From an uncultured delta proteobacterium (GTDB lineage: Bacteria > Desulfobacterota > WTBG01 > CAIYCZ01 > CAIRTM01): a stretch of 64,000 bases of DNA. Positions 27,577 through 49,163 of the stretch are shown here, one piece after another. Within the stretch, counting starts at the first letter, position 1; the number at the start of each line of letters is the position of its first letter. The translations under genes and the position numbers were made by a program. Under the pieces are notes generated by a model. That model was not told the origin of the DNA. It ran no database searches and saw only the letters and a list, made by a program, of their open reading frames with translations. The stretch lies in NCBI GenBank assembly GCA_963804955.1, contig CAWDSQ010000030.1, forward strand, positions 32,001 through 96,000. Reading direction: 5' to 3'.

Positions 27577-30500
27577 CTATGTTCGAGGCGGGAGCAGGGC
27601 AACCCGTTCAGAGCATGCGCGGTGCCTGCGATGCTCGCGCAGATACTGAGCCGTGAGCGATTCCCGGAAATTTCCGCCGGCAACCTCATGTGGCGGGCCT
27701 GCGGCGACTATTCTCCCACCGTCTGCGCCGCCTCCCGGGCCAAGGTCGATGATGGTGTCGGCCTGACCAATCACCTCGAGGTTGTGCTCAATGATGACCA
27801 TGGTGTTTCCGAGCTCGACCAGTTCCTGCAGCACGTTCATGAGCTTTTCAATATCGGCAGGGTGCAGGCCCGTGGTGGGTTCATCAAGAATATAGAGCGT
27901 TGCCCCCTGGTCGTTTTTACACAGCTCCGCCGCTATCTTGATGCGCTGCGCCTCGCCGCCGGAGAGCGTTGGACTTGGCTGCCCGAGCTGCAGATACCCA
28001 AGGCCCATGCGCTGCAGGATGTCCAGCGGCCGGTGGATAGCTGAGAATCCGGTGAAAAAATCGCAGCCTTCCTCGACGGTCATGGACAGAACCTGCGAGA
28101 TATTTTTTTCTTTGAGAAGAATTTGAAGCGTTTCATCGTTGAAGCGGTTGCCGCGGCACTCGTCGCAAGCGACATACATGTCAGGCAGAAAGTTCATGGC
28201 AATCCGGAGCTTGCCCTGTCCCGAGCATTTTTCGCACCGCCCACCGCTGACATTGAAGGAAAACCTGCTTGCAGCGTAGCCGCGCATGCGCGCATCGGGC
28301 ACGAGAGCGTAGAGCTTGCGGATGTCATCGTAGAATCCTACATAGGTCGCCGGCACCGAGCGGGGTGTTTTGCCGATGGGCGACTGGTCGATTTCAATGA
28401 CGCGCCTGACCTGCTCGGCGCCTGCAATATCCCGGTGGCTGCCGGTAGACCCGAAATACTGGCCGAGCTTTTTGCGCAGGCCCTTGTAGAGGGTCTCGCG
28501 CACAAGGGTCGTTTTGCCCGACCCGGAAATGCCGGTTACCACCGTAAGCCGTCCCAGCGGGATAGACACCGTAAGCTCCTGCAGATTGTGCTCCCGGGCG
28601 CCAACCAGTGTGATATGGCTGCAGCCCGCAAGCGGCCGTGATATGCGGCCGTCCGAGCGCCGGGCTGTTTCGGAAAGCCAGGCCCCGGTGATTGAAGCCG
28701 GGTTTTTCAGTATTTCGGCAAGTGTTCCCGCAGCCACCACCGTGCCGCCATGCATGCCGCCGCCGGGCCCGAGATCGACAATATAGTCGGCGCTGCGTAT
28801 CGTCTCTTCATCATGCTCAACGATGATGACGCTGTTGCCCTTCTGCTGAAGCTCCCGAATGATGGAGATGAGCTTTTTGCTGTCATGGGGGTGCAGGCCG
28901 ATGGTGGGCTCGTCCAGCACATAGGCAACGCCCCGCAGGTTTGATGCCACCTGCGCCGCAAGGCGCATGCGCTGTGCTTCACCGCCCGAAAGCGTGTCGG
29001 CGCTGCGGTCAAGGCTGAGATAGGAGAGCCCTGCCTTGTCCAGCAGCTGAAGCTTCGGGATGAGCTCCTGCAGTATTGGCCTGGCGATCGCCCGGTGCTT
29101 GCCCGAAAAAGAAATTGTTTTCAGAAATGCGAGCAGGCCCGGGGCTGTCATGGAAGCAAGCTCGGCTATCGATTTGTCCGTGATGAGCACGGAGCGGGCG
29201 GCCTGGTTCAGGCGCGTCCCATTGCAGTCCGGGCAGCGCGACTCAATATGAAACTGGGCCAGATACTCCTGCATCTGCGACTCGTCATCGGCTTGCGGCG
29301 ATTCGAAAAGTGCTGCAAGGCCGGGGAATGATTTTGAGCCATGCAGCAGCGCCTTGTGCTTTGCCGGCGTCAGACGGGCAAGCGGCTCATCCGGTGCTAT
29401 GCCGAGGCTGCGCTCAATGCGGCCGATGATGCGTTTTTTGAGCGCCTGGGGCACCTGCTGAGCGATAAGAGCGGGTATGGCCCCGTCTTGAATCGACTTG
29501 TGGCGGTCGGCTATCATCAGCTCCGCCGACAGCGCTGCAACCGAGCCCAGCCCTTCGCAGCGGCGGCAGGCGCCTGAAGGGCTATTGAACGAGAACAGGC
29601 GGGGGTCGGGCTCTTCCATGCTGATGCGGCATTCCGGGCATGATGCTTTGATGCTGTAGAATTTTTCATCGTCCGGTGGCGACAGCACCATCATTTCCCC
29701 TCTGCCCAGCCCGAGGGCGCGGTTGACCATATCCTGAAGGCGCGGTGCGCTGAGTGCTGCGGGCGCACATTCAGAGGTGATGAAATCGATTTTGTGCTCG
29801 TGATAGCGCTTGATGGCGAAAATATTGCCGACCTCAACAACTGCGCCGTCTATGCGGATGCGGCTGCAGCCTTCAAGGCGGGCCCGCTGTATGACGTCTT
29901 TATGGAATCCCTTGCGGCCGCGCACCTGCGGGGCAAGCAGCAGCACCTGGCGGCTGCCGAAGCTGCGGGCAATATCGCGGCAGATGTCCTGGGGGTTTTG
30001 CGCTGCAAGGGGCCTGCCGCAGCCGGGGCAGTGCTGCTGACCCGCCTTGGCAAACAGCAGCCGCAGATAGTGATAGATTTCCGTGGCGGTGGCGACGGTG
30101 GAGTTGCGGCCGCCGCGCGAGAGCATCTGCTCTATGGCCACCGTTGGCGGCAGTCCCCTGATGGCATCCACATCGGGTCGCGCGAGCTGGGTGATATACT
30201 GGCGGGCATAGGGCGACAGCGTTTCAAGAAATCGGCGCTGGCCTTCGGCAAACAGAATGTCAAATGCCAGGGTGGATTTGCCCGAGCCCGAAAGTCCTGT
30301 GATCACGACCATCTGCCCGAGCGGCAGCTTGAGTGACAGGTTTTTGAGATTGTGTTCGCGTGCTCCTTCGATGGAAATGCAGTTTCCGCCATTCTGCGGA
30401 GCCTGCTTTTTACTGCCGCGCTGGACAGCTGCTGCCGGGTGGGTGTATTCCTTTAAAAAAAGGCCCGTGTAGGAACCCTCTGCCGCCATGATTTCATCAG

Positions 30501-33189
30501 GCGGACCCTGCGCCACCAGGCTGCCGCCGGCATGGCCGCCTTCCGGGCCGAGGTCAAGCAGGTGATCTGCGCATTTTATTATATCCAGATTATGCTCAAC
30601 GACGATAATGGAATGGCCCTGACGCACAAGGTAGTCAAAGGCCTGCAGGAGTTTTGCAATATCGTCATAGTGCAGCCCTGTCGTGGGCTCGTCAAAAAGA
30701 AAGAGAGTTCGACCCTGGCTGCCCTGCCTGATAAATGATGCCAGTTTCAGCCGCTGCGACTCCCCGCCCGAGAGCGTATTGGCCGGCTGCCCGAGCCGCA
30801 GATACCCCAGGCCCACCATGTCGAGAATGCGCAGGGGGGAGGTGATTTTGGGCGTATCGGCGAAAAAAGCGCAGCCTTCGGCAACGGACATCTCCAGCAC
30901 ATCATGGATGTTTTTGCCCTGCCAGGTTACTTCGAGCACTTCAGGGCTGTAGCGCCTGCCGCGGCATGCCGGGCAGGTCACATACACATCCGCCAGAAAC
31001 TGCATCTCAACCATTTCATAGCCGTCGCCCTGGCACTGCTGGCACCGGCCTCCCTGGCTGTTGAAAGAAAATGTTGAAGCCGTATAGCCCCGCTCGCGCG
31101 CGGCATCGGTCTGGGCAAACAGGGCCCGTATGGCCTCAAAAGCCTTCATGTAGGTGACCGGGTTTGAGCGCGGGGTTCTGCCGATGGGCCCCTGATCCAT
31201 AAGAATCACGGTCTCGGGAGCGTTTTTCCCCTCAAAGAAGCAGAGGCCTGATTTTTTATCGCGCTGCGACAGGGTTTTGTACAGCACGTCCTCGAGAAGG
31301 GTTGATTTGCCTGAGCCCGAAACTCCGGTTATGCAGACAAGCAGGCCAAGGGGGATGGTGATATCGAGTGATTTTAGATTATGAGCGGCTGCGCCGCGAA
31401 CCTGCAGGCGGCAGTCGGATGAGGGCCTGCGCCGCAGCCGGGGAGGCCTTATGGCAAGAGCCCCTGACATATATTTTCCGGTAAGTGATGCCGTGCTTTT
31501 TAGAAGCCCGGCCGGCGTTCCCGTAAAAACGATACTGCCGCCCCGTTCCCCCGAGGCCGGCCCCATGTCGATGACCGTATCGCTATTGGAGATAATATCG
31601 TGATCATGCTCAACGATCATCAGCGTATTGCCCATGTCCCTCAGGCCCTTCAGGATTTCGATCAGCATGCGCGTGTCGCGCGGGTGGAGTCCAATGCTGG
31701 GCTCATCCAGCACATAGAGCGTATTGACAAGGCATGAACCCAGGGCCGTTGTGAGGCTGGCCCGCTCCACTTCGCCGCCCGAGAGGGTGCGCGACTGGCG
31801 GTCAAGGGTGAGATACCCCAGCCCCACGCGCTCAAGATAGGAGAGGCGCGAGGCTATTTCCTGCAGCAGCACCGTGACGGTCGTATCCTCACCGGGGCGG
31901 GCCTGGAGCGCGCGGAAATAGTGGAGACAGTCAGAGATGGGCATGCTGCAGATATCGGCAATGGAGGCGCCGCCGATTTTATACAGCAGGGTCTCGTTCT
32001 TGAAGCGCGTGCCGCCGCAGGCTGAGCACAGGGTGTAGGCGCGGTATTTTGAAAGCAGCACCCGTATGTGCATTTTATAGGTCCGCGTTTCAAGCCACTT
32101 GAAAAAGCCCATGATGCCGTAGAAATCGTCGCTGCCTGTGACAATGGTTGAGCGCTGCTCGTCGGTAAGCTCGCGGTACGGCAGGTCTGCGGGAATGCCC
32201 TGCCTGCGGCAGAAGCGCAAAAGATCATGATAGGCCTCGCGGTATGATGGCGTTGACCAGGGCTTGATCGCATCATCCTTGAGGGACAAAGACGTGTCGG
32301 GCACCACCGCATCAAGATCAACCTCGATTGTGCGGCCGAATCCCCTGCACAGGTCGCAGGCCCCCAGAGGGCTGTTGAAAGAAAAAAGGCCGGGGGTCGG
32401 TATGCGGTAGTGTATGTCGCAGTGGGGGCAGTGAAGGTCGGTGCTGAATTTCAGCGGTAGAGCCTCAGCCTCCGCAAGAAAGACAGAGGCCTGCCCCTTG
32501 CCGAATTTCAACGTGGTTTCAAGAGAATCGGCAAGGCGCTTTTTATTGCGCTGTGCAATCGTCACCCTGTCTGCAAGGATATTGACAGTTCCTTCTGCAT
32601 GATGCGCCAGCAGTTCAGCCGTTATTTCCTGCGCCGTACCGGCTTCAAAAATCCGGTAAAACCCCTGGGCCCGGAGCCCTGCCTCAACCTCCTGCAGAGG
32701 CACAACCGATGCCGGGGGAACCGTAAAGGGAAAGGCGATGGTGCAGCCCAGACCCTCATGGTCTGCCAGAAGCACCCGGCAGATCGACTCTGCTGAGTCT
32801 TTTTCAACAACCCGGCCGCAGCCCCGGCAGCACAGGCGCGCAAGCCTGGGAAAAAGCAGCTTCAAATAGTCGGTGATTTCGGTGAGCGTCCCCAGCGTCG
32901 AGCGGGAGGTTTTAATAGTGTTGGTCTGGTTGATGGCAATGGCCGGAAGAATGCCCTCGATCGAGTCGACGGCCGGCTTGTCCATGCGGTCCATGAACTG
33001 GCGGGCATAGGCTGAAAAGCTTTCGATATACCGGCGCTGGCCTTCGGCATAGACCGTGTCGAAGGCCAGGCTTGATTTGCCCGAGCCCGACACGCCCGTC
33101 ACGACCGTGATTTTCCCCAGCTCAATATCCAGATCGAGGTTTTTCAGATTGTTCTGGCATGCGCCGCGGATGCTTATTTTATCGCTCAT
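27577..33189 (-). CDS. uvrA: Excinuclease ABC subunit A, double-length (two UvrA units fused)
   Basis: 1870 aa; four Walker A motifs (GVSGSGKS x2, [16 protein letters not shown]), four LSGGE signatures, repeated FSFN zinc modules. Confidence 0.95.
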
Positions 33190-42262: not shown

Positions 42263-42318
42263 GGCTTTGTCAGAGCATGTAAGAACAATCAACTTAAACA
42301 CTGCGGGTGTTTTTGATT

Positions 42319-42392
42319 TGTCATGCTGAGCGTAGCGAAGATTCCATGCAGTGACAAAAAATTACGAGCCCCTTCACTTCGTTCAGGTCACA
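42319..42392. repeat. TGTCA-family REP-like palindrome (copy 1)
   Basis: TGTCATGCTGAGCGTAGCGAAG...CTTCACTTCGTTCAGGTCACA; related copy at 48735-48808. Confidence 0.7.
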
Positions 42393-42543: not shown

Positions 42544-43686
42544 ATGGCGAACAATCAAATGATCCAAACCGAGGCAAAGAATAGCACAGGTAAGCAGGTT
42601 TTGTACATATCCCTTGAACTGTCCAACAAGAAATGGAAACTGACGTTTGGGGACGGGCAACGCAGGAGGGAGCGAACAATAACATCAGCAGATCTTGAAG
42701 AGTTTAAGGAAGAGCTGGTCAAGGCCCGGAAGCATTTTAGACTGGATGAAGATTGCGCCATATACAGCTGTTATGAATCGGGACGAGACGGGTTTTGGAT
42801 ACATCGGTATTTGGAGAGCATAGGGATAAAGAATATCGTGGTGGACTCGGCCAGTATCGAAGTGAACCGGCGGCATCGGCGGGCCAAGACGGACCGGGTA
42901 GATGGGTTAAAGTTGTTAACCATGCTGATACGGCACTTGGGAGGAGAGCAGAAAGTCTGGAGTGTGGTACGGGTTCCGACACAGGAACAGGAAGATGAAC
43001 GGCGACTCAACCGAGAGAGGGATCGGCTGTTAAAGGAACGGGGAGCACATGTAAGCCGGATAAAGTCGCTACTGATATTGTATGGGATACATGCAAAGGT
43101 AGGCAGTAAATTTCTGAAGCTGCTTGAGGAAGTGCGAGCCTGGGATGGCAGCAAACTGCCAGAGTATATCGTGCAGGAGATGAAGCGGGAGTATGAACGG
43201 ATAGGGGTGCTGGACCTGCAGTTGAAGCAGATCAATGAAGAGAAGAAGCGGCAGCTTGCGGCAAGTCCTGAACAAATGCGCAAGGTAAGCAAGCTTGCCC
43301 GGATACGGGCAATTGGGCCGATCAGTTCATGGGATTTGATCTATGAGTTTTTTGGCTGGCGGGAATTCAAGAATGTGAAGCAGGTGGGAGGTGCAGCAGG
43401 TCTTGCGCCAATGCCCTACAGCAGCGGGGATATGCAGATTGAGCAAGGGATAAGCAAAGCGGGCAATCGGCGGATCCGAGCTTTGCTGATAGAGTTAGCC
43501 TGGGGATGGCTGAGATGGCAGCCTGGCAGTAAGCTAAGCACGTGGTTTCATGAGCGCTTTGGAGGGGGCAACAAACGAATGAGGCGAATAGGGATCGTGG
43601 CGCTGGCCAGAAAACTGCTCATAGCGCTGTGGAAGTATGTTGATCACGACATCGTGCCGGAAGGCGCGATACTAAAGATGGCATAA
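42544..43686 (+). CDS. IS110 family transposase/recombinase
   Basis: RuvC-like N-terminus SLELS / CYESG / KTDRVD; C-terminal Tnp domain GLAPMPYSSG, GISKAGN, IVALARKL. Confidence 0.95.
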   Translation: MANNQMIQTEAKNSTGKQVLYISLELSNKKWKLTFGDGQRRRERTITSADLEEFKEELVKARKHFRLDEDCAIYSCYESGRDGFWIHRYLESIGIKNIVVDSASIEVNRRHRRAKTDRVDGLKLLTMLIRHLGGEQKVWSVVRVPTQEQEDERRLNRERDRLLKERGAHVSRIKSLLILYGIHAKVGSKFLKLLEEVRAWDGSKLPEYIVQEMKREYERIGVLDLQLKQINEEKKRQLAASPEQMRKVSKLARIRAIGPISSWDLIYEFFGWREFKNVKQVGGAAGLAPMPYSSGDMQIEQGISKAGNRRIRALLIELAWGWLRWQPGSKLSTWFHERFGGGNKRMRRIGIVALARKLLIALWKYVDHDIVPEGAILKMA

Positions 43687-44093: not shown

Positions 44094-44480
44094 TCAGTCA
44101 TACATGACGGTAATCTCGCCTTCGTCAATTTGCTCCGAACGGCATTTAGGACAACGAGGGGGAGCGTCGAGGCAATACCTCCCGCCACACCTGCATGTTC
44201 CAGCAATAAATTCGATTCCTTTGTGATATTCATCTTCGGATATAGGCTCAACTTTTGTAGTCTCTCGTATAGCCTTATCATGTTCCGCACTTGCAACACA
44301 ATACGGTCCCGGCAGTCCTTTTAAGTAGCGCAAATGCAACTCTCCAAGTTCATCAAAACCTATAGACTTCGTCTTTCCACAATTCTCACAGCGAACGAGG
44401 TGAAAGTAAAACCCCCCACCGTGGTCAACAGTGAAAGTGTTACCGCATTTGCGGCATTTGGCTTTAACTTGATGTCCCAT
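44094..44480 (-). CDS. Hypothetical zinc-ribbon protein
   Basis: CRKC, CENC, CRC and CPKC motifs; GGAGGAGG RBS. Confidence 0.8.
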   Translation of the reverse strand: MGHQVKAKCRKCGNTFTVDHGGGFYFHLVRCENCGKTKSIGFDELGELHLRYLKGLPGPYCVASAEHDKAIRETTKVEPISEDEYHKGIEFIAGTCRCGGRYCLDAPPRCPKCRSEQIDEGEITVMYD

Positions 44481-44559: not shown

Positions 44560-45117
44560 TTAGTTCTTGGGCTCGATGAGCCACGCCGATAGTCCCTTAA
44601 ACGGTGGGAGCACCGCACCAGAAAATCCTCCGTGGGCAATGATTGCAAATGTGCGGGTTCGTAAGCAGGCAGGCATTGCTTTCGGAACCATTCCATAACG
44701 CATGAAGTAGCCTCCTCGCGAGTGAAATTTACCATTCAGGAAAAACTGGAACTCTTCAAAACCCGATAACGGTCCCCAGCTTATGAACCGAACGAAGTCG
44801 ATGTGTATAGTTTTCTTTAGGAACTTAAAATTGCAGTGAATGTGCCGCGGAGTTGGATTAGGACTCGCCGAGGGATCAGAGCAAGGATAGTTTGCATCGT
44901 CTTCAGCAAGTTCCCAGGTAACATCCAGAGGAATCCTTTGCCAGCTCTCACCGTCGATAGTCATTTTAAACATCTTTTTTGTCTTAGTCTTCTGTAACTG
45001 TTCGAAGGACGGACAATCACCAAACCACGGCGGATAATGCTCATATCGTCTTGAAGGGTCGTAAAAGAAAAGGCCGTTTTTTTCTACTGACAATAAGTTA
45101 TTTAGTGGGCATTTCAT
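44560..45117 (-). CDS. Hypothetical protein directly downstream of the tandem riboswitch leader
   Basis: 185 aa ORF preceded by AAAGGAG; no recognisable motif. Confidence 0.55.
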   Translation of the reverse strand: MKCPLNNLLSVEKNGLFFYDPSRRYEHYPPWFGDCPSFEQLQKTKTKKMFKMTIDGESWQRIPLDVTWELAEDDANYPCSDPSASPNPTPRHIHCNFKFLKKTIHIDFVRFISWGPLSGFEEFQFFLNGKFHSRGGYFMRYGMVPKAMPACLRTRTFAIIAHGGFSGAVLPPFKGLSAWLIEPKN

Positions 45118-45138
45118 GGCAGATTAATCTCCTTTCTC

Positions 45139-45176
45139 AAAACAAAAAACCTCGGGAGCTGGAACAGCCCACGAGG
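45139..45176 (-). terminator. Intrinsic terminator of the proximal aptamer (copy 1)
   Basis: CCTCG-T-GGGCTG-TTC-CAGCTC-C-CGAGG followed by TTTTTTGTTTT. Confidence 0.8.
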
Positions 45177-45182
45177 TTTTTT

Positions 45183-45235
45183 GGCTGTTTAGCACCTTGG
45201 TAAGGCGGTTGCAAGTAACCCTAAATCGGCCCGCC
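45183..45235 (-). ncRNA. SAM-II-like riboswitch aptamer, proximal (copy 1)
   Basis: GGCGG-GCCGAUUUA-GGGUUACUUGCAA-CCGCC-UUACCAAGGU-GCUAAA-CAGCC: P1, GAUUU, CUUGC, GCUAAA, and GGUU/AGCC pseudoknot. Confidence 0.8.
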
Positions 45236-45254
45236 GTAAAACAATTGTATTTTA

Positions 45255-45287
45255 AAATAAAAAAACCCCGTGCTTTGGGGCGCGGGG
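45255..45287 (-). terminator. Intrinsic terminator of the distal aptamer (copy 1)
   Basis: CCCCGCGC-CCCAAA-GCACGGGG followed by TTTTTTTATTTT. Confidence 0.8.
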
Positions 45288-45305
45288 TTAAATACACTTT
45301 TAACC

Positions 45306-45357
45306 GGCCTTTAGCACATTTATATAGCGGAGCAAGTAACCAAACTAAATCACCGCT
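45306..45357 (-). ncRNA. SAM-II-like riboswitch aptamer, distal (copy 1)
   Basis: AGCGG-UGAUUUAGUUU-GGUUACUUGCU-CCGCU-AUAUAAAUGU-GCUAAA-GGCC. Confidence 0.8.
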
Positions 45358-45364
45358 TTGTAAT

Positions 45365-45392
45365 AACATAGTCATTCTTTCAAACAAGTCAA
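45365..45392 (-). promoter_or_regulatory. Probable sigma70 promoter of leader copy 1
   Basis: TTGACT-16 bp-TATGTT; the same boxes and spacing occur in copy 2 although the spacer differs. Confidence 0.65.
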
Positions 45393-45446
45393 TAGCCGCT
45401 GCCCGGCCAAGGCCATTTTTCCCAAATACCAATAGAAATCTGTCCG

Positions 45447-46163
45447 TTACAACAACTTCCCAAAATCCTGCCAACTGGTATGCAGCGAGTCTTTATTTAG
45501 TGTTTCCGCTAATATTTTTAGATACTTCTTTCGTGGTATCGACTTTCCTCCGAGACTCAACATATGGTCAGTTACGGCCTGGCAATCGATAAAATCAAAC
45601 TCAAGCTGCAGCAGTACACGGCACAGGGCAAAAAACGCGAGCTTTGAAGCATTCGGCCGCTGGTGAAACATGGATTCACCGAAAAAAGCTCTTCCAAATG
45701 TGAGCCCGTAGAGGCCACCGCAAAGCTCGTCTCCATCGTAAACCTCAACGCTGTGCGCTATGTGCAGATGGTGCAGTTTGGTATAGACAGCCGGCATATC
45801 GCCATTTATCCAGGGGGCAGTCTGAAACGTCCTTTCCACCCGAGCGCATTGTTCCATAACCCTGGTAAAATTTCTATCAAAGCTGACTGTCAGGCTGGTA
45901 TTCCGGATAAAACTGCGCAGGCTCCGGGAGAGATGCAACTCGGATGGATACAAAACCAGGCGTGGATTCGGAGAATACCAGGGAATAGGATCCAGTCCGG
46001 ACCAGGGGAATATCCCCCTTGTGTAAGCTTCAACTACGGTGTTAACAGTTATTTTGCCGCCCAGGAAAACCAAACCATCCTTCCGCGGCTGTAATTTTTC
46101 CGGAAACTGTGCTGGGATTTCTCCACGGCGGATATCTTCGAGAATTGTCTTATAGTATTCCAT
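45447..46163 (-). CDS. aat: Leucyl/phenylalanyl-tRNA--protein transferase
   Basis: AYTRGIFPW, WYSPNPR, AHSVEV, GGLYG...FFGESMF, NASK, IDCQ...H. Confidence 0.95.
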   Translation of the reverse strand: MEYYKTILEDIRRGEIPAQFPEKLQPRKDGLVFLGGKITVNTVVEAYTRGIFPWSGLDPIPWYSPNPRLVLYPSELHLSRSLRSFIRNTSLTVSFDRNFTRVMEQCARVERTFQTAPWINGDMPAVYTKLHHLHIAHSVEVYDGDELCGGLYGLTFGRAFFGESMFHQRPNASKLAFFALCRVLLQLEFDFIDCQAVTDHMLSLGGKSIPRKKYLKILAETLNKDSLHTSWQDFGKLL

Positions 46164-46230: not shown

Positions 46231-46867
46231 TTACAAATCGCCTTCCTGTAATACCCGACCAAGACCATTTTTCTCCAGATACCAATAGGTAAAGTGTTTA
46301 GACAGCCAGCTTGCAGCTTTTTCTTCAGCCAGTGGCCGATAACGAGACGTGTAAATAACCGGTATGCAAAAGCGTGCTTCCAAAGCATCAAGTGTTCCCG
46401 AAACAGCATTGGGGTGTGCCTCTGTGCATTCATCATCATATGGCGACTTTATATCTTCATAGCTCGCCTCTACCAGTAAAGCACGCCACCGGTACTGAGC
46501 CAATTTTTCGCACATTTTGAAAAAGCGTGACCGCTGCTGTATCAAGGTTGTTATGAGGTCGGAAAGTGTTTTGCGCTCAATTACGAGCAAGTCTTCCATG
46601 CCTTCTATGCTGTAATCACCAACGTCAAGCTTCTGCCTTCTTTCGCCGGCAATCCAGTTGGGAAACCTGCTGAAATCAAGAGGGAGTTTTTCACGGGTAT
46701 CGACCAAAACAACAGGCTTGGGAATTTGCCGTGTAATGCTGTGACCGCCACGCTTCACAATTAATCGGCCCGATGGCGGTGCTACAGGATTTTGGTGTTG
46801 TATCGGTTCATCAAGTTCATCCTGATCGGATTCTTCGACATCTTGAGGAGATCTGATCTTTTGGCAT
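46231..46867 (-). CDS. ERCC4/XPF-like nuclease domain protein (probable start MPKDQI, frameshift shortly after)
   Basis: VDTRE, GDYS and IERKTLSDL ERCC4 motifs; AAAGGAG RBS before ATG 46867. Confidence 0.85.
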
Positions 46868-46894
46868 ATACACTCCTTTATATCGTTATAGTGG

Positions 46895-46972
46895 TTATAG
46901 AAACAGAAGAACCCCCAGTGCGGCAAGAGCAATACCGAAACCTGCAAGACCAATCAATATATCTTCTTTCAT
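46895..46972 (-). CDS. 25-aa single-TM small protein
   Basis: MKEDILIGLAGFGIALAALGVLLFL*; AGAAGGGGGG RBS; fills the gap between ARH and ERCC4 genes. Confidence 0.6.
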   Translation of the reverse strand: MKEDILIGLAGFGIALAALGVLLFL

Positions 46973-47029: not shown

Positions 47030-47807
47030 TCATTTGTTCTTACAATATTTTTCCGTGAATGCCTTCGTGATATCTCCAAGCCGGGCGTCCAGTACTTCGT
47101 AGACTTTTTCCTGAATTAAGGCCGGAACGCCTTTGTAGAAAGCCTGCGCTATGCCGCCAGTAATACAGGTGAGCGTATCGGTGTCTCCACCCAGCGATAC
47201 TGCCGTTCTTATGGCATCTTCAAAATCGCTGGAATCAATGAATGCCCGTATTGCCTGCGGAACAGTGCCCTGGGACGAAACATCGAAACTGTATGTCGGC
47301 CGGATCTCGTCCACGTGTTTGCTCAGATCATAGCCGAACCATGCTTCAATCGTGTTTTTGATCTCAGCCTTTGACTTCCCTGTCCGGGCAAGGAATATCG
47401 CAGACAGCGGTTGCTTGCCCTCCCTTGATTCCTTCAGGATGATTATGGGTAATCTCGGTATACTCCTTTGCCTTTTGCAGTACCGTGTCCAGATCATCAA
47501 AAGCATACCCCACAGGGCTGATGCGCATGGCAGCGCCATTGCCCCAGCTGTTGTAGGGTTCTGATGACGTGCTTTGCGCCCATTCATCAAAGTTGCCGCC
47601 ATACCCTCTGTGCGGATACCAGCAGTAGAATTTCTTGAGATTGTCGATATATGGCGTTCCGGTCAAAATAGTATCGGCCAGTGCGATTGTCAGAACCGAG
47701 TCGTCTGTGAAATGACATTTTTTAGAGAACAACTCAAACTGTTTGGTCTTGATGTTGTCCCACTCGTACACCGAACCGATGATGTCACCTGCTATTGCAC
47801 CTATCAT
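47030..47807 (-). CDS. ADP-ribosylglycohydrolase family protein (frameshift near 47405)
   Basis: GAIAGDIIGS, FTDDS, SWGNGAAMR, THNH, then AVSLGGDTDT in the next frame. Confidence 0.92.
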
Positions 47808-47920: not shown

Positions 47921-48579
47921 TCAGTGAAGCTTGTGATCTTTCCTGTCATTGAGATCAAAATCCATCTTCTTTTTTTTGTTACTTCGATAATCAGTGGTGT
48001 TGCACGAGAGGACTAGCAAAAGCATCTCGTGTACCTTTAGCGTCCTTGACATATGCAAGGTTTGCCTGCTTGTCTATGCCGTATGACTCTGCGTCCCGAA
48101 TCGCATCTAAATCAGAGCTGAGAAAAACAAACTGCCAGTCGTTCTTTTTTGTTTTTTCGTCTATCATTTTCACGATCTGAGCTCTGTTGAACTCGCGGCT
48201 GGCGTTCTCCTGCCCGTCAGTGACGATGGCCAGCACGACTTTTGAAGGCTGTGATTTTTCATCAATGCTTGCCAAGAGAGGCTTCCAGGTCGTTTATGCC
48301 TCTTCCGATCGCGTCCAGCAGCGGCGTGGAGGCCCGCGGGACATATACATTTCGGTCCAGTTTAGGGACTTCAGCAACAGGGGCAAAGCGGCAAATAACC
48401 TCATAGGGGTCCTGGGAGTCAAACTGAACGAGTGTCATTGTGGCCTTCCCGGGCAACTTTTGCTGCTCATCCAAAAATGCGTTGAAGCCGCCGATAATGT
48501 CATCGCGTATGCTTTCCATGGAACCGGTCCTGTCAAGGATAACGGTTATGTGCGTGTAATCGTTTTTTTCATTTTTCAT
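47921..48579 (-). CDS. VWA domain protein (frameshifts near 48270 and 48010)
   Basis: MIDAS-like ILDRTGSM, TPLLDAIG, VTDGQENAS, WQFVFL; AAAGGAG RBS. Confidence 0.88.
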
Positions 48580-48649
48580 GGCATTCTCCTTTGTAAAACG
48601 TGGTTTATTGTCTCTTGTCTTTCCCTGTGATTTTCTATGTTCTGAATAA

Positions 48650-48688
48650 AGTATAGCGGTTGGTTTTGTCATATAAGGACAAAACCAA
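48650..48688 (-). promoter_or_regulatory. Palindromic operator next to a TATACT -10 box upstream of the VWA gene
   Basis: TTGGTTTTGTC-N7-GACAAAACCAA perfect 11-bp inverted repeat (48660-48688); TATACT at 48655-48650. Confidence 0.6.
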
Positions 48689-48734
48689 ATTTTTTATCTT
48701 AGAGTCTGTACGAAAAGCCAAAGCACCTTCGTTT

Positions 48735-48808
48735 TGTCATTCTGAGCGCAGCGAAGAATCTCGTCGTTTTAATGAATTCAGAGATCCTTCACTTCGTTCA
48801 GGATGACA
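48735..48808. repeat. TGTCA-family REP-like palindrome (copy 2)
   Basis: TGTCATTCTGAGCGCAGCGAAGAATCTC...GAGATCCTTCACTTCGTTCAGGATGACA. Confidence 0.75.
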
Positions 48809-48911
48809 TTAAATGACTTTTCATACCCGTTCGTGCTTAAACTCAACATACGGTGACCCGGATAACAATATTGAGATCAAGATATTTTGTTTTTTTTGCC
48901 TCCTTTTTTAC

Positions 48912-48947
48912 AACAAAAAACCCCGAGAGCTGGAACAGCCCACGAGG
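48912..48947 (-). terminator. Intrinsic terminator of the proximal aptamer (copy 2)
   Basis: CCTCG-T-GGGCTG-TTC-CAGCTC-T-CGGGG followed by TTTTTTGTT. Confidence 0.75.
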
Positions 48948-48953
48948 TTTCCT

Positions 48954-49006
48954 GGCTGTTTAGCACTTTGGTAAGGCGGCTGCAAGTTGCCGTAAATCGA
49001 CCCGCC
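48954..49006 (-). ncRNA. SAM-II-like riboswitch aptamer, proximal (copy 2)
   Basis: GGCGG-GUCGAUUUA-CGGCAACUUGCAG-CCGCC-UUACCAAAGU-GCUAAA-CAGCC. Confidence 0.78.
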
Positions 49007-49025: not shown

Positions 49026-49056
49026 AAACAAAAAAACCCGTGCTTTAGGGCACGGG
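49026..49056 (-). terminator. Intrinsic terminator of the distal aptamer (copy 2)
   Basis: CCCGTGC-CCTAAA-GCACGGG followed by TTTTTTTGTTTT. Confidence 0.8.
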
Positions 49057-49074
49057 CTAACTACGCTTTTAACC

Positions 49075-49125
49075 GGCCTTTAGCACATTTATAAAGCGGA
49101 GCAAGTAACCTTTTAACTCACCGCT
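49075..49125 (-). ncRNA. SAM-II-like riboswitch aptamer, distal (copy 2; GAUUU changed to GAGUU)
   Basis: AGCGG-UGAGUUAAAA-GGUUACUUGCU-CCGCU-UUAUAAAUGU-GCUAAA-GGCC. Confidence 0.7.
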
Positions 49126-49135
49126 ATTTAATTAT

Positions 49136-49163
49136 AGTATAGGTATGGTTTTTATAAAGTCAA
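49136..49163 (-). promoter_or_regulatory. Probable sigma70 promoter of leader copy 2
   Basis: TTGACT-16 bp-TATACT. Confidence 0.7.

Follow-up and report, generated by a model that had tools for sequence, protein, structure and literature searches.

Two tandem SAM-II-type leaders in a low-GC island of an uncultured Thermodesulfobacteriota bacterium, predicted to act as serial transcription switches

Two leaders with tandem SAM-II-type aptamers

The 64,000-nt stretch of contig CAWDSQ010000030.1 (assembly GCA_963804955.1) analysed here, referred to as the window, comes from a metagenome-assembled genome (MAG) of an uncultured Thermodesulfobacteriota bacterium and carries on its minus strand two RNA leaders, A and B, each with two successive aptamers that resemble the SAM-II class of S-adenosylmethionine (SAM) riboswitches. 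SAM-II is a well-studied riboswitch class, and riboswitches nearly always control genes related to their ligand. Read along the minus strand, the locus consists of leader B, a dispersed repeat, a von Willebrand factor A (vWA)-type gene, an ADP-ribosylglycohydrolase (ARH) gene, an ERCC4-type nuclease gene, aat, leader A, and two open reading frames (ORFs) of 185 and 128 amino acids (aa) (Table 1). We propose that each leader is a tandem of SAM-II-class riboswitches acting as two successive SAM-dependent transcription OFF switches, a reading to which we give a probability of roughly 0.77.

The presence of a tandem SAM-II-type leader on the minus strand, reported in an earlier note on this DNA, is confirmed, as the promoter, the aptamers, the terminators and the ribosome-binding site (RBS) that the note had named all lie where it placed them. 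Both aptamers of leader A have a P1 stem of 5 bp and a loop that starts with GAUUUA and ends with ACUUGC, followed by an A-rich linker, GUGCUAAA, and then GGCC or CAGCC; these last bases, 3' of GUGCUAAA, are able to pair with the GGUU of the loop. The starts of A1 and A2 are 122 nt apart. Within terminator 2, GGCUGUU (45169-45163) is the partner of the A2 tail AACAGCC (45189-45183). The promoter-like site is conserved in leader B and in a genome of the same genus (G002), while a promoter scan returned 2 such sites in 2.3 kb with 3.6 expected, so that the promoter match alone is not evidence.

What the earlier note had called copy 2 is real: leader B is a second complete leader at about 49163-48899 (minus strand), with a mean column identity of 88% to leader A over 304 columns from the -35 box to the RBS. 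This second leader is probably in decay, given the repeat that sits behind it as an insertion and the frameshift in the gene that follows.

Table 1. Features of the two leaders and of the island that contains them (positions in the window, strand in brackets)
Feature	Position	Details
Leader A	45392-45129 (-)	promoter-like site, 2 aptamers, terminator after each, RBS, ATG
Promoter-like site, leader A	45365..45392 (-)	TTGACT, 16 nt, TATGTT; 9/12 consensus positions
Aptamer A1 (type 1)	45306..45357 (-)	P1 AGCGG/CCGCU, GAUUUA, ACUUGC, GUGCUAAA, GGCC
Antiterminator 1, predicted	45286..45305 (-)	GGUUAAA (45305-45299) with UUUAACC (45292-45286); truncated-transcript fold
Intrinsic terminator 1 with U tract	45259..45289 (-)	-15.2 kcal/mol
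Aptamer A2 (type 2)	45183..45235 (-)	P1 GGCGG/CCGCC, GAUUUA, ACUUGCAA (ACUUGC), GUGCUAAA, CAGCC
Intrinsic terminator 2, bulged hairpin with U tract	45144..45178 (-)	-19.2 kcal/mol
RBS and start codon	45115..45135 (-)	AAAGGAG (45135-45129), ATG (45117-45115)
Promoter-like site, leader B	49136..49163 (-)	TTGACT, 16 nt, TATACT; aligned with leader A
Aptamer B1 (type 1)	49075..49125 (-)	GAGUU replacing GAUUU (49119-49115)
Terminator after B1	49030..49057 (-)	-15.5 kcal/mol
Aptamer B2 (type 2)	48954..49006 (-)	
Terminator after B2, then RBS-like site	48899..48949 (-)	-19.1 kcal/mol; AAGGAGG (48905-48899)
p185, first controlled gene, 185-aa ORF	44560..45117 (-)	12 nt beyond leader A
Second gene, 128-aa protein	44094..44480 (-)	CxxC zinc-ribbon motifs; weak sub-cut-off Pfam (HypA, Zn_ribbon)
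IS110-family transposase, far end of island	42544..43686 (+)	Pfam PF02371, PF01548
aat, Leu/Phe-tRNA protein transferase	45447..46163 (-)	directly upstream of leader A; PF03588, 210 bits
ERCC4-type nuclease gene	46231..46953 (-)	PF02732, PHROG 3490
ARH gene, two overlapping frames	47030..47807 (-)	PF03747 on both pieces
vWA-type gene, split into two frames	47991..48672 (-)	PHROG 7371 on the G002 copy
Dispersed repeat resembling a miniature inverted-repeat transposable element (MITE)	48730..48830 (-)	about 100 nt, between leader B and vWA gene

Assignment of the aptamers to the SAM-II class

On sequence grounds, the four aptamers of the window are SAM-II members by architecture and descent that curated cut-offs miss, which supports the class named in the earlier note. 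They contain the SAM-II core in order, namely GAUUU in the 5' part of the loop, CUUGC in its 3' part, the A-rich linker and GCUAAA in the 3' tail, and the consensus of RF00521 has P1, GAUUU, CUUGC, GCUAAA and GGCC in identical order. The motif pattern matches the window 3 times where 0.03 matches are expected, and none of 100 shuffled sequences reaches 3.

In Rfam 15, the gathering cut-offs are 44 bits for RF01726 (SAM-II long-loop) and 36 bits for RF00521 (SAM_alpha), and the scores of the four window aptamers range from 14 to 22 bits. A search with relaxed thresholds, covering the 451-nt region 45050-45500 up to E = 10, gave 26 matches, the best of which are SAM-II models. Aptamer A2 is the top match of this search, with 21.7 of the 44 bits of RF01726 (E 0.086), and A1 scores 14.4 bits with RF01726 and 15.6 bits with RF00521, both below threshold; the SAM-V model RF01826, for which a match had also been considered, is absent among the 26. 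RF01726 has its two best matches in the entire 4.26-Mb assembly at A2 and B2 (20.8 bits), again sub-threshold, with E of 0.2-0.3. The covariance-model check suggested in the earlier note therefore came out in two parts: the Rfam gathering score was not reached, and the sub-threshold matches are SAM-II models, with homologs that bridge to a locus that does pass. That locus, L102, reaches 43 bits with RF00521 (cut-off 36) and is the only one among 40 related loci searched to pass a gathering cut-off; below it the homologs form a graded series, with L155 at 41.3 of 44 bits (RF01726), L159 at 32.2, L151 at 30.4 and L084 at 28.3. As the subtype lies below the curated thresholds of Rfam, routine annotation misses it.

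Relatives of the window aptamers were collected by motif pattern in viral contigs, species-representative genomes and metagenomes, so that the positions of the core motifs in the homologs are fixed by the search patterns and their conservation there is not independent. A covariance model, R1, built from 20 first-type aptamers and containing P1 only, detects 38 aptamers in 24 sources at E <= 0.01. A2 and B2, which are outside its training set, reach 43 bits (E of about 2.4e-8, and 2.5e-8 for B2); A1 and B1 reach 79.2 and 79.1 bits, but both belong to the training set. P1 is paired at all 5 positions in 38/38 aptamers and shows compensatory changes at three of its five pairs (AU 18, CG 10 and GC 10; CG 31 and UA 7; GC 37 and AU 1), and its covariation score is reached by 0/500 shuffles, with the caveat that R1 fitted the alignment to the P1 helix and so favours it. 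The P2a pairing between loop and tail is possible in the window as GGUU/GGCC, GGUU/AGCC and GGC/GCC, and homologs offer the variants GGUU/AACC, GCU/GGC, GGCU/AGCC and AUGGC/GCCAU.

The SAM-II fold has been described as a major-groove triplex with a SAM pocket (PMC6061858). By analogy, an H-type pseudoknot triplex with such a pocket, and selective binding of SAM, are predicted for the aptamers of the window.

Two predicted transcriptional switches in series

A clear terminator follows 29 of the 38 aptamer units, including all four in the window (-15 to -19 kcal/mol). The aptamer tail can form a duplex of -8 kcal/mol or stronger with the 5' arm of the terminator in 21 of these 29 units, with a mean z of -1.26 relative to shuffled tails. 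In the window this duplex is most evident for A2 (-11.5 kcal/mol, z -2.19) and B2 (z -1.56), and B1, with z of about -1, is weaker than these two. When transcripts are cut before the 3' arm of the terminator, their minimum free energy (MFE) folds pair the tail with the 5' arm and the loop of the terminator. The antiterminators that appear in these truncated folds, AACAGCC/GGCUGUU in A2 and B2 and GGUUAAA/UUUAACC in A1, are the pairings that the earlier note had pointed out. Since each aptamer has its own terminator and a tail complementary to the 5' arm and loop of that terminator, a double transcriptional OFF switch, as had been suggested, is the best reading of the leaders, its direction being the one that the following model predicts.

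In the SAM-bound state, an aptamer's 3' tail (UGCUAAA with GGCC or CAGCC) would be held in an H-type pseudoknot with the loop of the hairpin; the tail being sequestered, the downstream terminator would form and RNA polymerase would stop. At low SAM, the free tail would pair with the 5' arm and loop of the terminator, allowing read-through. Transcription of the 185-aa ORF and the zinc-ribbon ORF would require passage through both checkpoints, and two such switches in series would represent the "pseudo-cooperative" arrangement known from SAM-II doublets.

The architecture has precedents. According to Huang and Lilley (2018; PMC6061858), most SAM-II riboswitches are transcriptional and that of metX is a rare translational one, which corrects the view, taken in the earlier note, that SAM-II mostly acts on translation. 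The note had also taken the SAM-II/SAM-V tandem as the known tandem case; the survey of Sherlock et al. (2022; PMC9481103), in its account of tandem arrangements, lists 44 SAM-II doublets, some with an intrinsic terminator for each aptamer, and 7 cases of SAM-II followed by SAM-I/IV. As tandem SAM-II aptamers with two terminators are in print, the RNA architecture is not new. The window leaders share with those doublets the two aptamers per leader with terminators of their own, for which a steeper response to SAM would be expected by analogy; they differ in their genes, as associations outside sulfur/SAM metabolism are not mentioned in that account. The Pelagibacter tandem of Poiata et al. (2009), as described in PMC9481103, likewise has two aptamers belonging to the broad SAM-II class in series, the first with a terminator, but its second aptamer is a SAM-V that controls the RBS, whereas in the window each aptamer has a terminator behind it and the RBS lies outside both. 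The succession of SAM-II and SAM-I/IV described in the same survey is found at one of our homologous loci (L163:60-354, minus strand, the same as L170), where a type-1 aptamer precedes a SAM-I riboswitch (RF00162, 48.1 bits, above cut-off) and a 118-aa ORF without Pfam family; the window leaders, in contrast, consist of two SAM-II-type aptamers with no SAM-I. With the SAM-II class as a whole they have in common the P1 hairpin, the GAUUU...CUUGC loop, the A-rich linker, GCUAAA, the GC-rich stretch that is able to pair with the loop and the intrinsic terminator, as well as homologs that precede metK, enzymes of the methionine pathway and a ThiS-type sulfur-carrier pair; they depart from it in their host, an uncultured Thermodesulfobacteriota MAG, and in controlled genes without recognisable SAM link.

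Several observations weigh against this reading. No Rfam match in the window lies at the gathering cut-offs, and none of 20 further tandem loci from metagenomes attains a gathering score. The P2b core was fixed by the search patterns, so that its conservation in homologs is not independent. For covariation of P2a, when the register is left flexible, loops do not pair better with their own tails than with permuted tails, the observed value being reached in 933 of 2000 permutations, and in one fixed register P2a pairs in 59.6% of cells. The duplex between tail and terminator 5' arm is weak in A1 (-7.6 kcal/mol, z -0.92). Full-length MFE folds form the terminators with or without the aptamer blocked and are uninformative on the switch; as the terminator forms in both states, the switch would have to be kinetic, operating during transcription. 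Finally, aptamer B1 has GAGUU where the consensus has GAUUU, and the genes behind the window leaders, p185 and the split vWA gene, have no recognisable link to SAM. The GAGUU variant occurs in 3 of the 38 aptamers, B1, L035b (L035:2365-2432) and L155a (L155:172-238), and seems to be tolerated, since one of these three precedes metK in a provirus.

Genes behind homologous leaders

The gene evidence for SAM as the ligand comes from the homologs and not from the window. In the first set of leaders (genome, viral and own), 7 of the 23 with a called gene precede a Met/SAM-related gene and 4 a protein of a family without Pfam match, here called family X; the remaining genes belong to no Pfam family, except a ClpX-like AAA+ protein and a weak zinc-ribbon match. 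The gene metK follows the leaders L091, L125, L209 and L173 and a leader in provirus G067. The L102 leader, which passes the Rfam cut-off, has a pyridoxal phosphate-dependent Cys/Met enzyme downstream, and the tandem leader L084 is followed by a PALP enzyme and a ThiS-type carrier. Downstream of L092 is an alpha/beta hydrolase for which Pfam gives the fold only, and which we read from its sequence as MetX-like (homoserine O-acetyltransferase-like); L123 is followed by DUF2061.

In metagenomes, first ORFs were obtained at 64 of 80 loci; 55 are distinct at 90% identity and 36 of these were compared with Pfam, the 19 others being visibly of the same families or short open fragments. The 36 proteins comprise 1 MetK, 1 CAT-family protein, 2 with weak sub-cut-off matches and 32 without Pfam family. 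In many loci terminator 2 is immediately succeeded by an RBS and a start codon.

Family X itself (about 245 aa) has a Cys-rich conserved C-terminal half and comprises at least 202 clusters, with 45-50% identity across phyla (for example L030:2774-3568 on the plus strand, L174:1835-2572, L035:1-813 on the minus strand, L173:1741-3066, L220 and L250). It lies behind a SAM-II leader in at least 4 loci and adjoins metK in provirus G067 and in L250, and in L173 it is in frame with a MetK domain. Its AlphaFold2 (AF2) model is confident, with a predicted local distance difference test (pLDDT) score of 86.8; Foldseek gave no match to it at E <= 0.001, the best VIA Z is 4.6, and all rows from the Atlas are under the bar. 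In the provirus locus (L187, G067:C1, 1-6520) a single strand carries, in this order, terminase gpA, DUF488, a 232-aa ORF, a SAM-II aptamer, metK, a second SAM-II aptamer and family X. This metK would be virus-associated and under predicted riboswitch control, but it lies at the edge of the provirus record and could be host flank.

Alternatives to a SAM-dependent double switch

The leaders could be relics, SAM-II by descent, which have kept no useful regulation and came with a decaying island. The frameshifted vWA and ARH genes, the IS110 transposase and the dispersed repeat right behind leader B fit this explanation, as does the finding that, in a survey at the level of the order, only 2 of 21 genomes, both of one genus, carry the leader. 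Leader A, on the other hand, is complete and is followed 12 nt on by an intact ORF conserved at 52-90% identity in 7 clusters, and the two leaders, at 88% identity, keep all core motifs and all stems, where the differences between them leave pairing possible. We consider this explanation improbable.

The earlier note had mentioned a possible ligand variant. On this reading the aptamers would be SAM-II look-alikes that sense another compound tied to the cargo of unknown function. Such a change of ligand would agree with the sub-threshold Rfam scores and with the 32 family-less proteins among the 36 distinct metagenome first proteins, and it has a precedent in the SAM-I variants that sense spermidine, as outlined in PMC10853860. 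The same first-type core, however, precedes metK in L091, L125, L209 and G067 (in its GAGUU form in G067), and in alignment A5 no core position separates the leaders of met genes from those of cargo genes, which together argue against a changed ligand; in addition, L163 couples the aptamer with a SAM-I riboswitch. A different ligand is thus very unlikely.

Another role could also be imagined, in which the terminated leaders act in trans as small RNAs, or the double terminator shields the cargo as an insulator, ligand sensing being secondary. The strong promoter-like sites followed by two efficient-looking terminators would suit such a role, and termination at the SAM-II riboswitch of metZ in Sinorhizobium is predicted to yield the small RNA RZ (PMC9373788). 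This explanation has to contend with the RBS and start codon placed directly behind terminator 2 in many loci and with the conservation across phyla of the aptamer core and not of the terminators alone, and we give it very little credence.

Chance resemblance of hairpins and terminators to SAM-II, which the Rfam E-values of 0.086 to 5.6 obtained in a small region might suggest, is for practical purposes refuted by the 3 pattern matches where 0.03 are expected and by the 38 + 109 homologous aptamers with P1 covariation and links to met genes.

Distribution and age of the tandem

Aptamers of this type occur well beyond the window. In viral contigs, the motif pattern matches 24 stretches, about the number expected by chance, of which 3 are real members (L030, L035 and L048), two of them at the extreme edge of records classed as provirus. 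In species-representative genomes there are at least 120 pattern matches, with about 25 real members among the matches listed; these belong to MAGs of Thermodesulfobacteriota/delta-proteobacteria, Syntrophales, Smithella, Acidobacteriota, Gemmatimonadaceae, Omnitrophota, Bacillota and Cryosericum. The strict pattern of the first type finds at least 121 loci in metagenomes, and in the 80 of these for which flanks were taken a second aptamer lies 117-147 nt downstream in 29 according to R1 and in 36 according to the motif. Besides the 38 aptamers detected with R1, a further 109 homologous ones were counted.

Leaders of the first set are tandem in 12 of 26 cases, always with the first type preceding the second. 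A1 and A2 are 65% identical to each other, compared with 83-91% for orthologs of either type from other phyla; as the orthologs are closer than the two members of the pair, the pair is an old unit and not a recent duplication.

In its own genome the tandem is confined to the island: in the 4.26-Mb assembly (87% complete) R1 recovers only the four island aptamers, the best RF00521 matches elsewhere reach 17-19 bits, and SAM-I gave no match at E <= 0.01. A BLAST search of the leader against 60 relatives returned only G002, the remaining matches being short and of the kind expected by chance.

The island and the genes behind the leaders

The context of the leaders and their odd controlled genes were overlooked in the earlier note. 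The island has a GC content of 0.45-0.46, compared with 0.53-0.60 around it, and lies between dxs/tlyA-like genes and bio-operon-like genes (names read from translations). The leaders would have arrived with this island, by horizontal acquisition. For a housekeeping gene, aat has an unusual position in the low-GC island, with the ERCC4 nuclease gene on one side and leader A on the other. At E <= 0.001 the MITE-like repeat matches its own genome 24 times, with an identity of 89% or higher in at least 9 cases, and a weaker copy is found at about 42317-42387, near the IS110 end of the island.

The same-genus genome G002 carries, in order, an intact vWA gene, the ERCC4 gene, an Arc-like ORF, a tandem leader, a 280-aa ORF, small ORFs and a copy of the 185-aa ORF. 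Its ERCC4 gene, also upstream of the leader, is 90% identical to that of the window, and its vWA gene is one continuous reading where the window has two ORFs. The G002 leader contains a 120-nt insert between its halves, and the copy of the 185-aa ORF, 85% identical to p185, lies 1.4 kb downstream of it. As G002 carries both the leader and this copy, the link between leader and p185 is conserved within the genus.

The product of p185 belongs to no family in Pfam, PHROG or PADLOC and its homologs form only the seven clusters mentioned above. Its AF2 model has a pLDDT of 62.7 and gave no Foldseek match in the PDB at E <= 0.001, and the ESM Atlas provides only weak leads, to beta-sandwich and glycosidase domains (0.90-0.92). 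A relationship between the p185 family and family X was considered and rejected, the profile comparison giving a probability of 0.1.

Possible association with defence islands

Within the 1.6-2.5 kb around the leaders that were examined, type II restriction enzymes and DNA methyltransferases are found beside L198/L100, L050, L200, L203 and L244, and in L198 and L200 the leader comes immediately after restriction-modification (RM) genes of its own strand. Further neighbours are McrBC, AbiEi/AbiEii, PifA-like, SoFic, WYL, PDC-S11, PDC-S26 and Vsr proteins, and, among mobile elements, a phage integrase, an ISL3 transposase and, in provirus G067, a phage terminase. At no fewer than 9 other loci, the gene immediately upstream of the leader is an intact ARH homolog, 44-71% identical to the frameshifted window copy. 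These adjacent pairs are found at L190, L197, L199, L201, L205, L211, L234, L279 and L301.

Individual loci have the following layouts. L198:107-1953 and L100:1-2848 share the order methyltransferase, restriction enzyme, single leader and 80-aa ORF. On the minus strand of L200 (3-2497), a NOV_C protein and a methyltransferase precede a single leader and a zinc-ribbon ORF. At L188 (G066:C1, 30-6942), three small ORFs, a tandem SAM-II leader and family X come after pglZ and brxL of a bacteriophage exclusion (BREX) system, and 3.4 kb beyond them is a large serine recombinase.

Compared with PADLOC, 23 of 127 flank proteins match at E <= 1e-5 and 16 at 80 bits or more, as opposed to 5 and 1 of 50 window proteins from outside the island and 9 and 3 of 109 proteins from 40 stretches of 3.2 kb taken at random from the own genome. 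The 127 flank ORFs were hand-picked from 228 distinct ones, leaving out cargo ORFs, met-gene loci and many housekeeping and ARH ORFs, which inflates their PADLOC share; over all 228, at least 10% have any PADLOC match and 7% one of 80 bits or more. The 80-bit line was chosen after the data had been seen, a single genome supplied the controls, and phylogenetically the loci are not independent of one another. A clear difference lies in the kinds of match, which are restriction enzymes, methyltransferases and abortive infection (Abi) proteins in the flanks versus generic domains in the controls; all 3 strong matches in the random stretches are proteins of the sigma-54-activator type that hit a generic AAA+ model. 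Among 23 cargo and island proteins, only the ClpX-like AAA+ protein of L095 gave PADLOC matches, which were weak and generic. Taken together, the link of the leaders with defence islands is suggestive, not decisive.

It may then be asked whether defence islands and prophages carry this highly conserved SAM-II leader subtype as a mobile regulatory cassette, with diverse cargo genes of unknown function that would be off at high SAM and on when SAM collapses, for example when a phage SAM lyase disarms RM or BREX systems. The riboswitch would in that case be a guard that senses an anti-defence attack, or a protection from the cell's own restriction enzyme when methylation fails. This idea is based on gene neighbourhood, and we regard it as unlikely; our literature search found no paper on SAM-II leaders as sensors of SAM depletion in a defence context.

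Whatever the role of the cargo, the unusual part of these observations is a widespread SAM-II subtype, invisible to Rfam, that travels with islands and prophages and precedes genes of unknown function. It is common (at least 121 metagenome loci) and nearly identical across phyla, yet it escapes the curated thresholds of Rfam 15, and most of the genes that it controls here encode small family-less proteins beside RM, BREX, Abi, transposase and prophage genes. Riboswitch surveys that are curated state that candidates with an "unreasonable gene association" are dropped (PMC5473149), a practice that could have hidden such a group of riboswitches. If the link to SAM depletion were true, the leaders would offer a metabolite riboswitch whose wiring into phage defence can be tested directly, and a handle on dozens of unknown protein families.

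A large ORF of 1870 aa elsewhere in the window (27577-33189, minus strand) matches PADLOC mad3 (533 bits) and mad8 of the methylation-associated defence system (MADS), together with many AAA/KaiC-type models. From these matches, this ORF, about 12 kb from the island, may encode a large defence-type ATPase.

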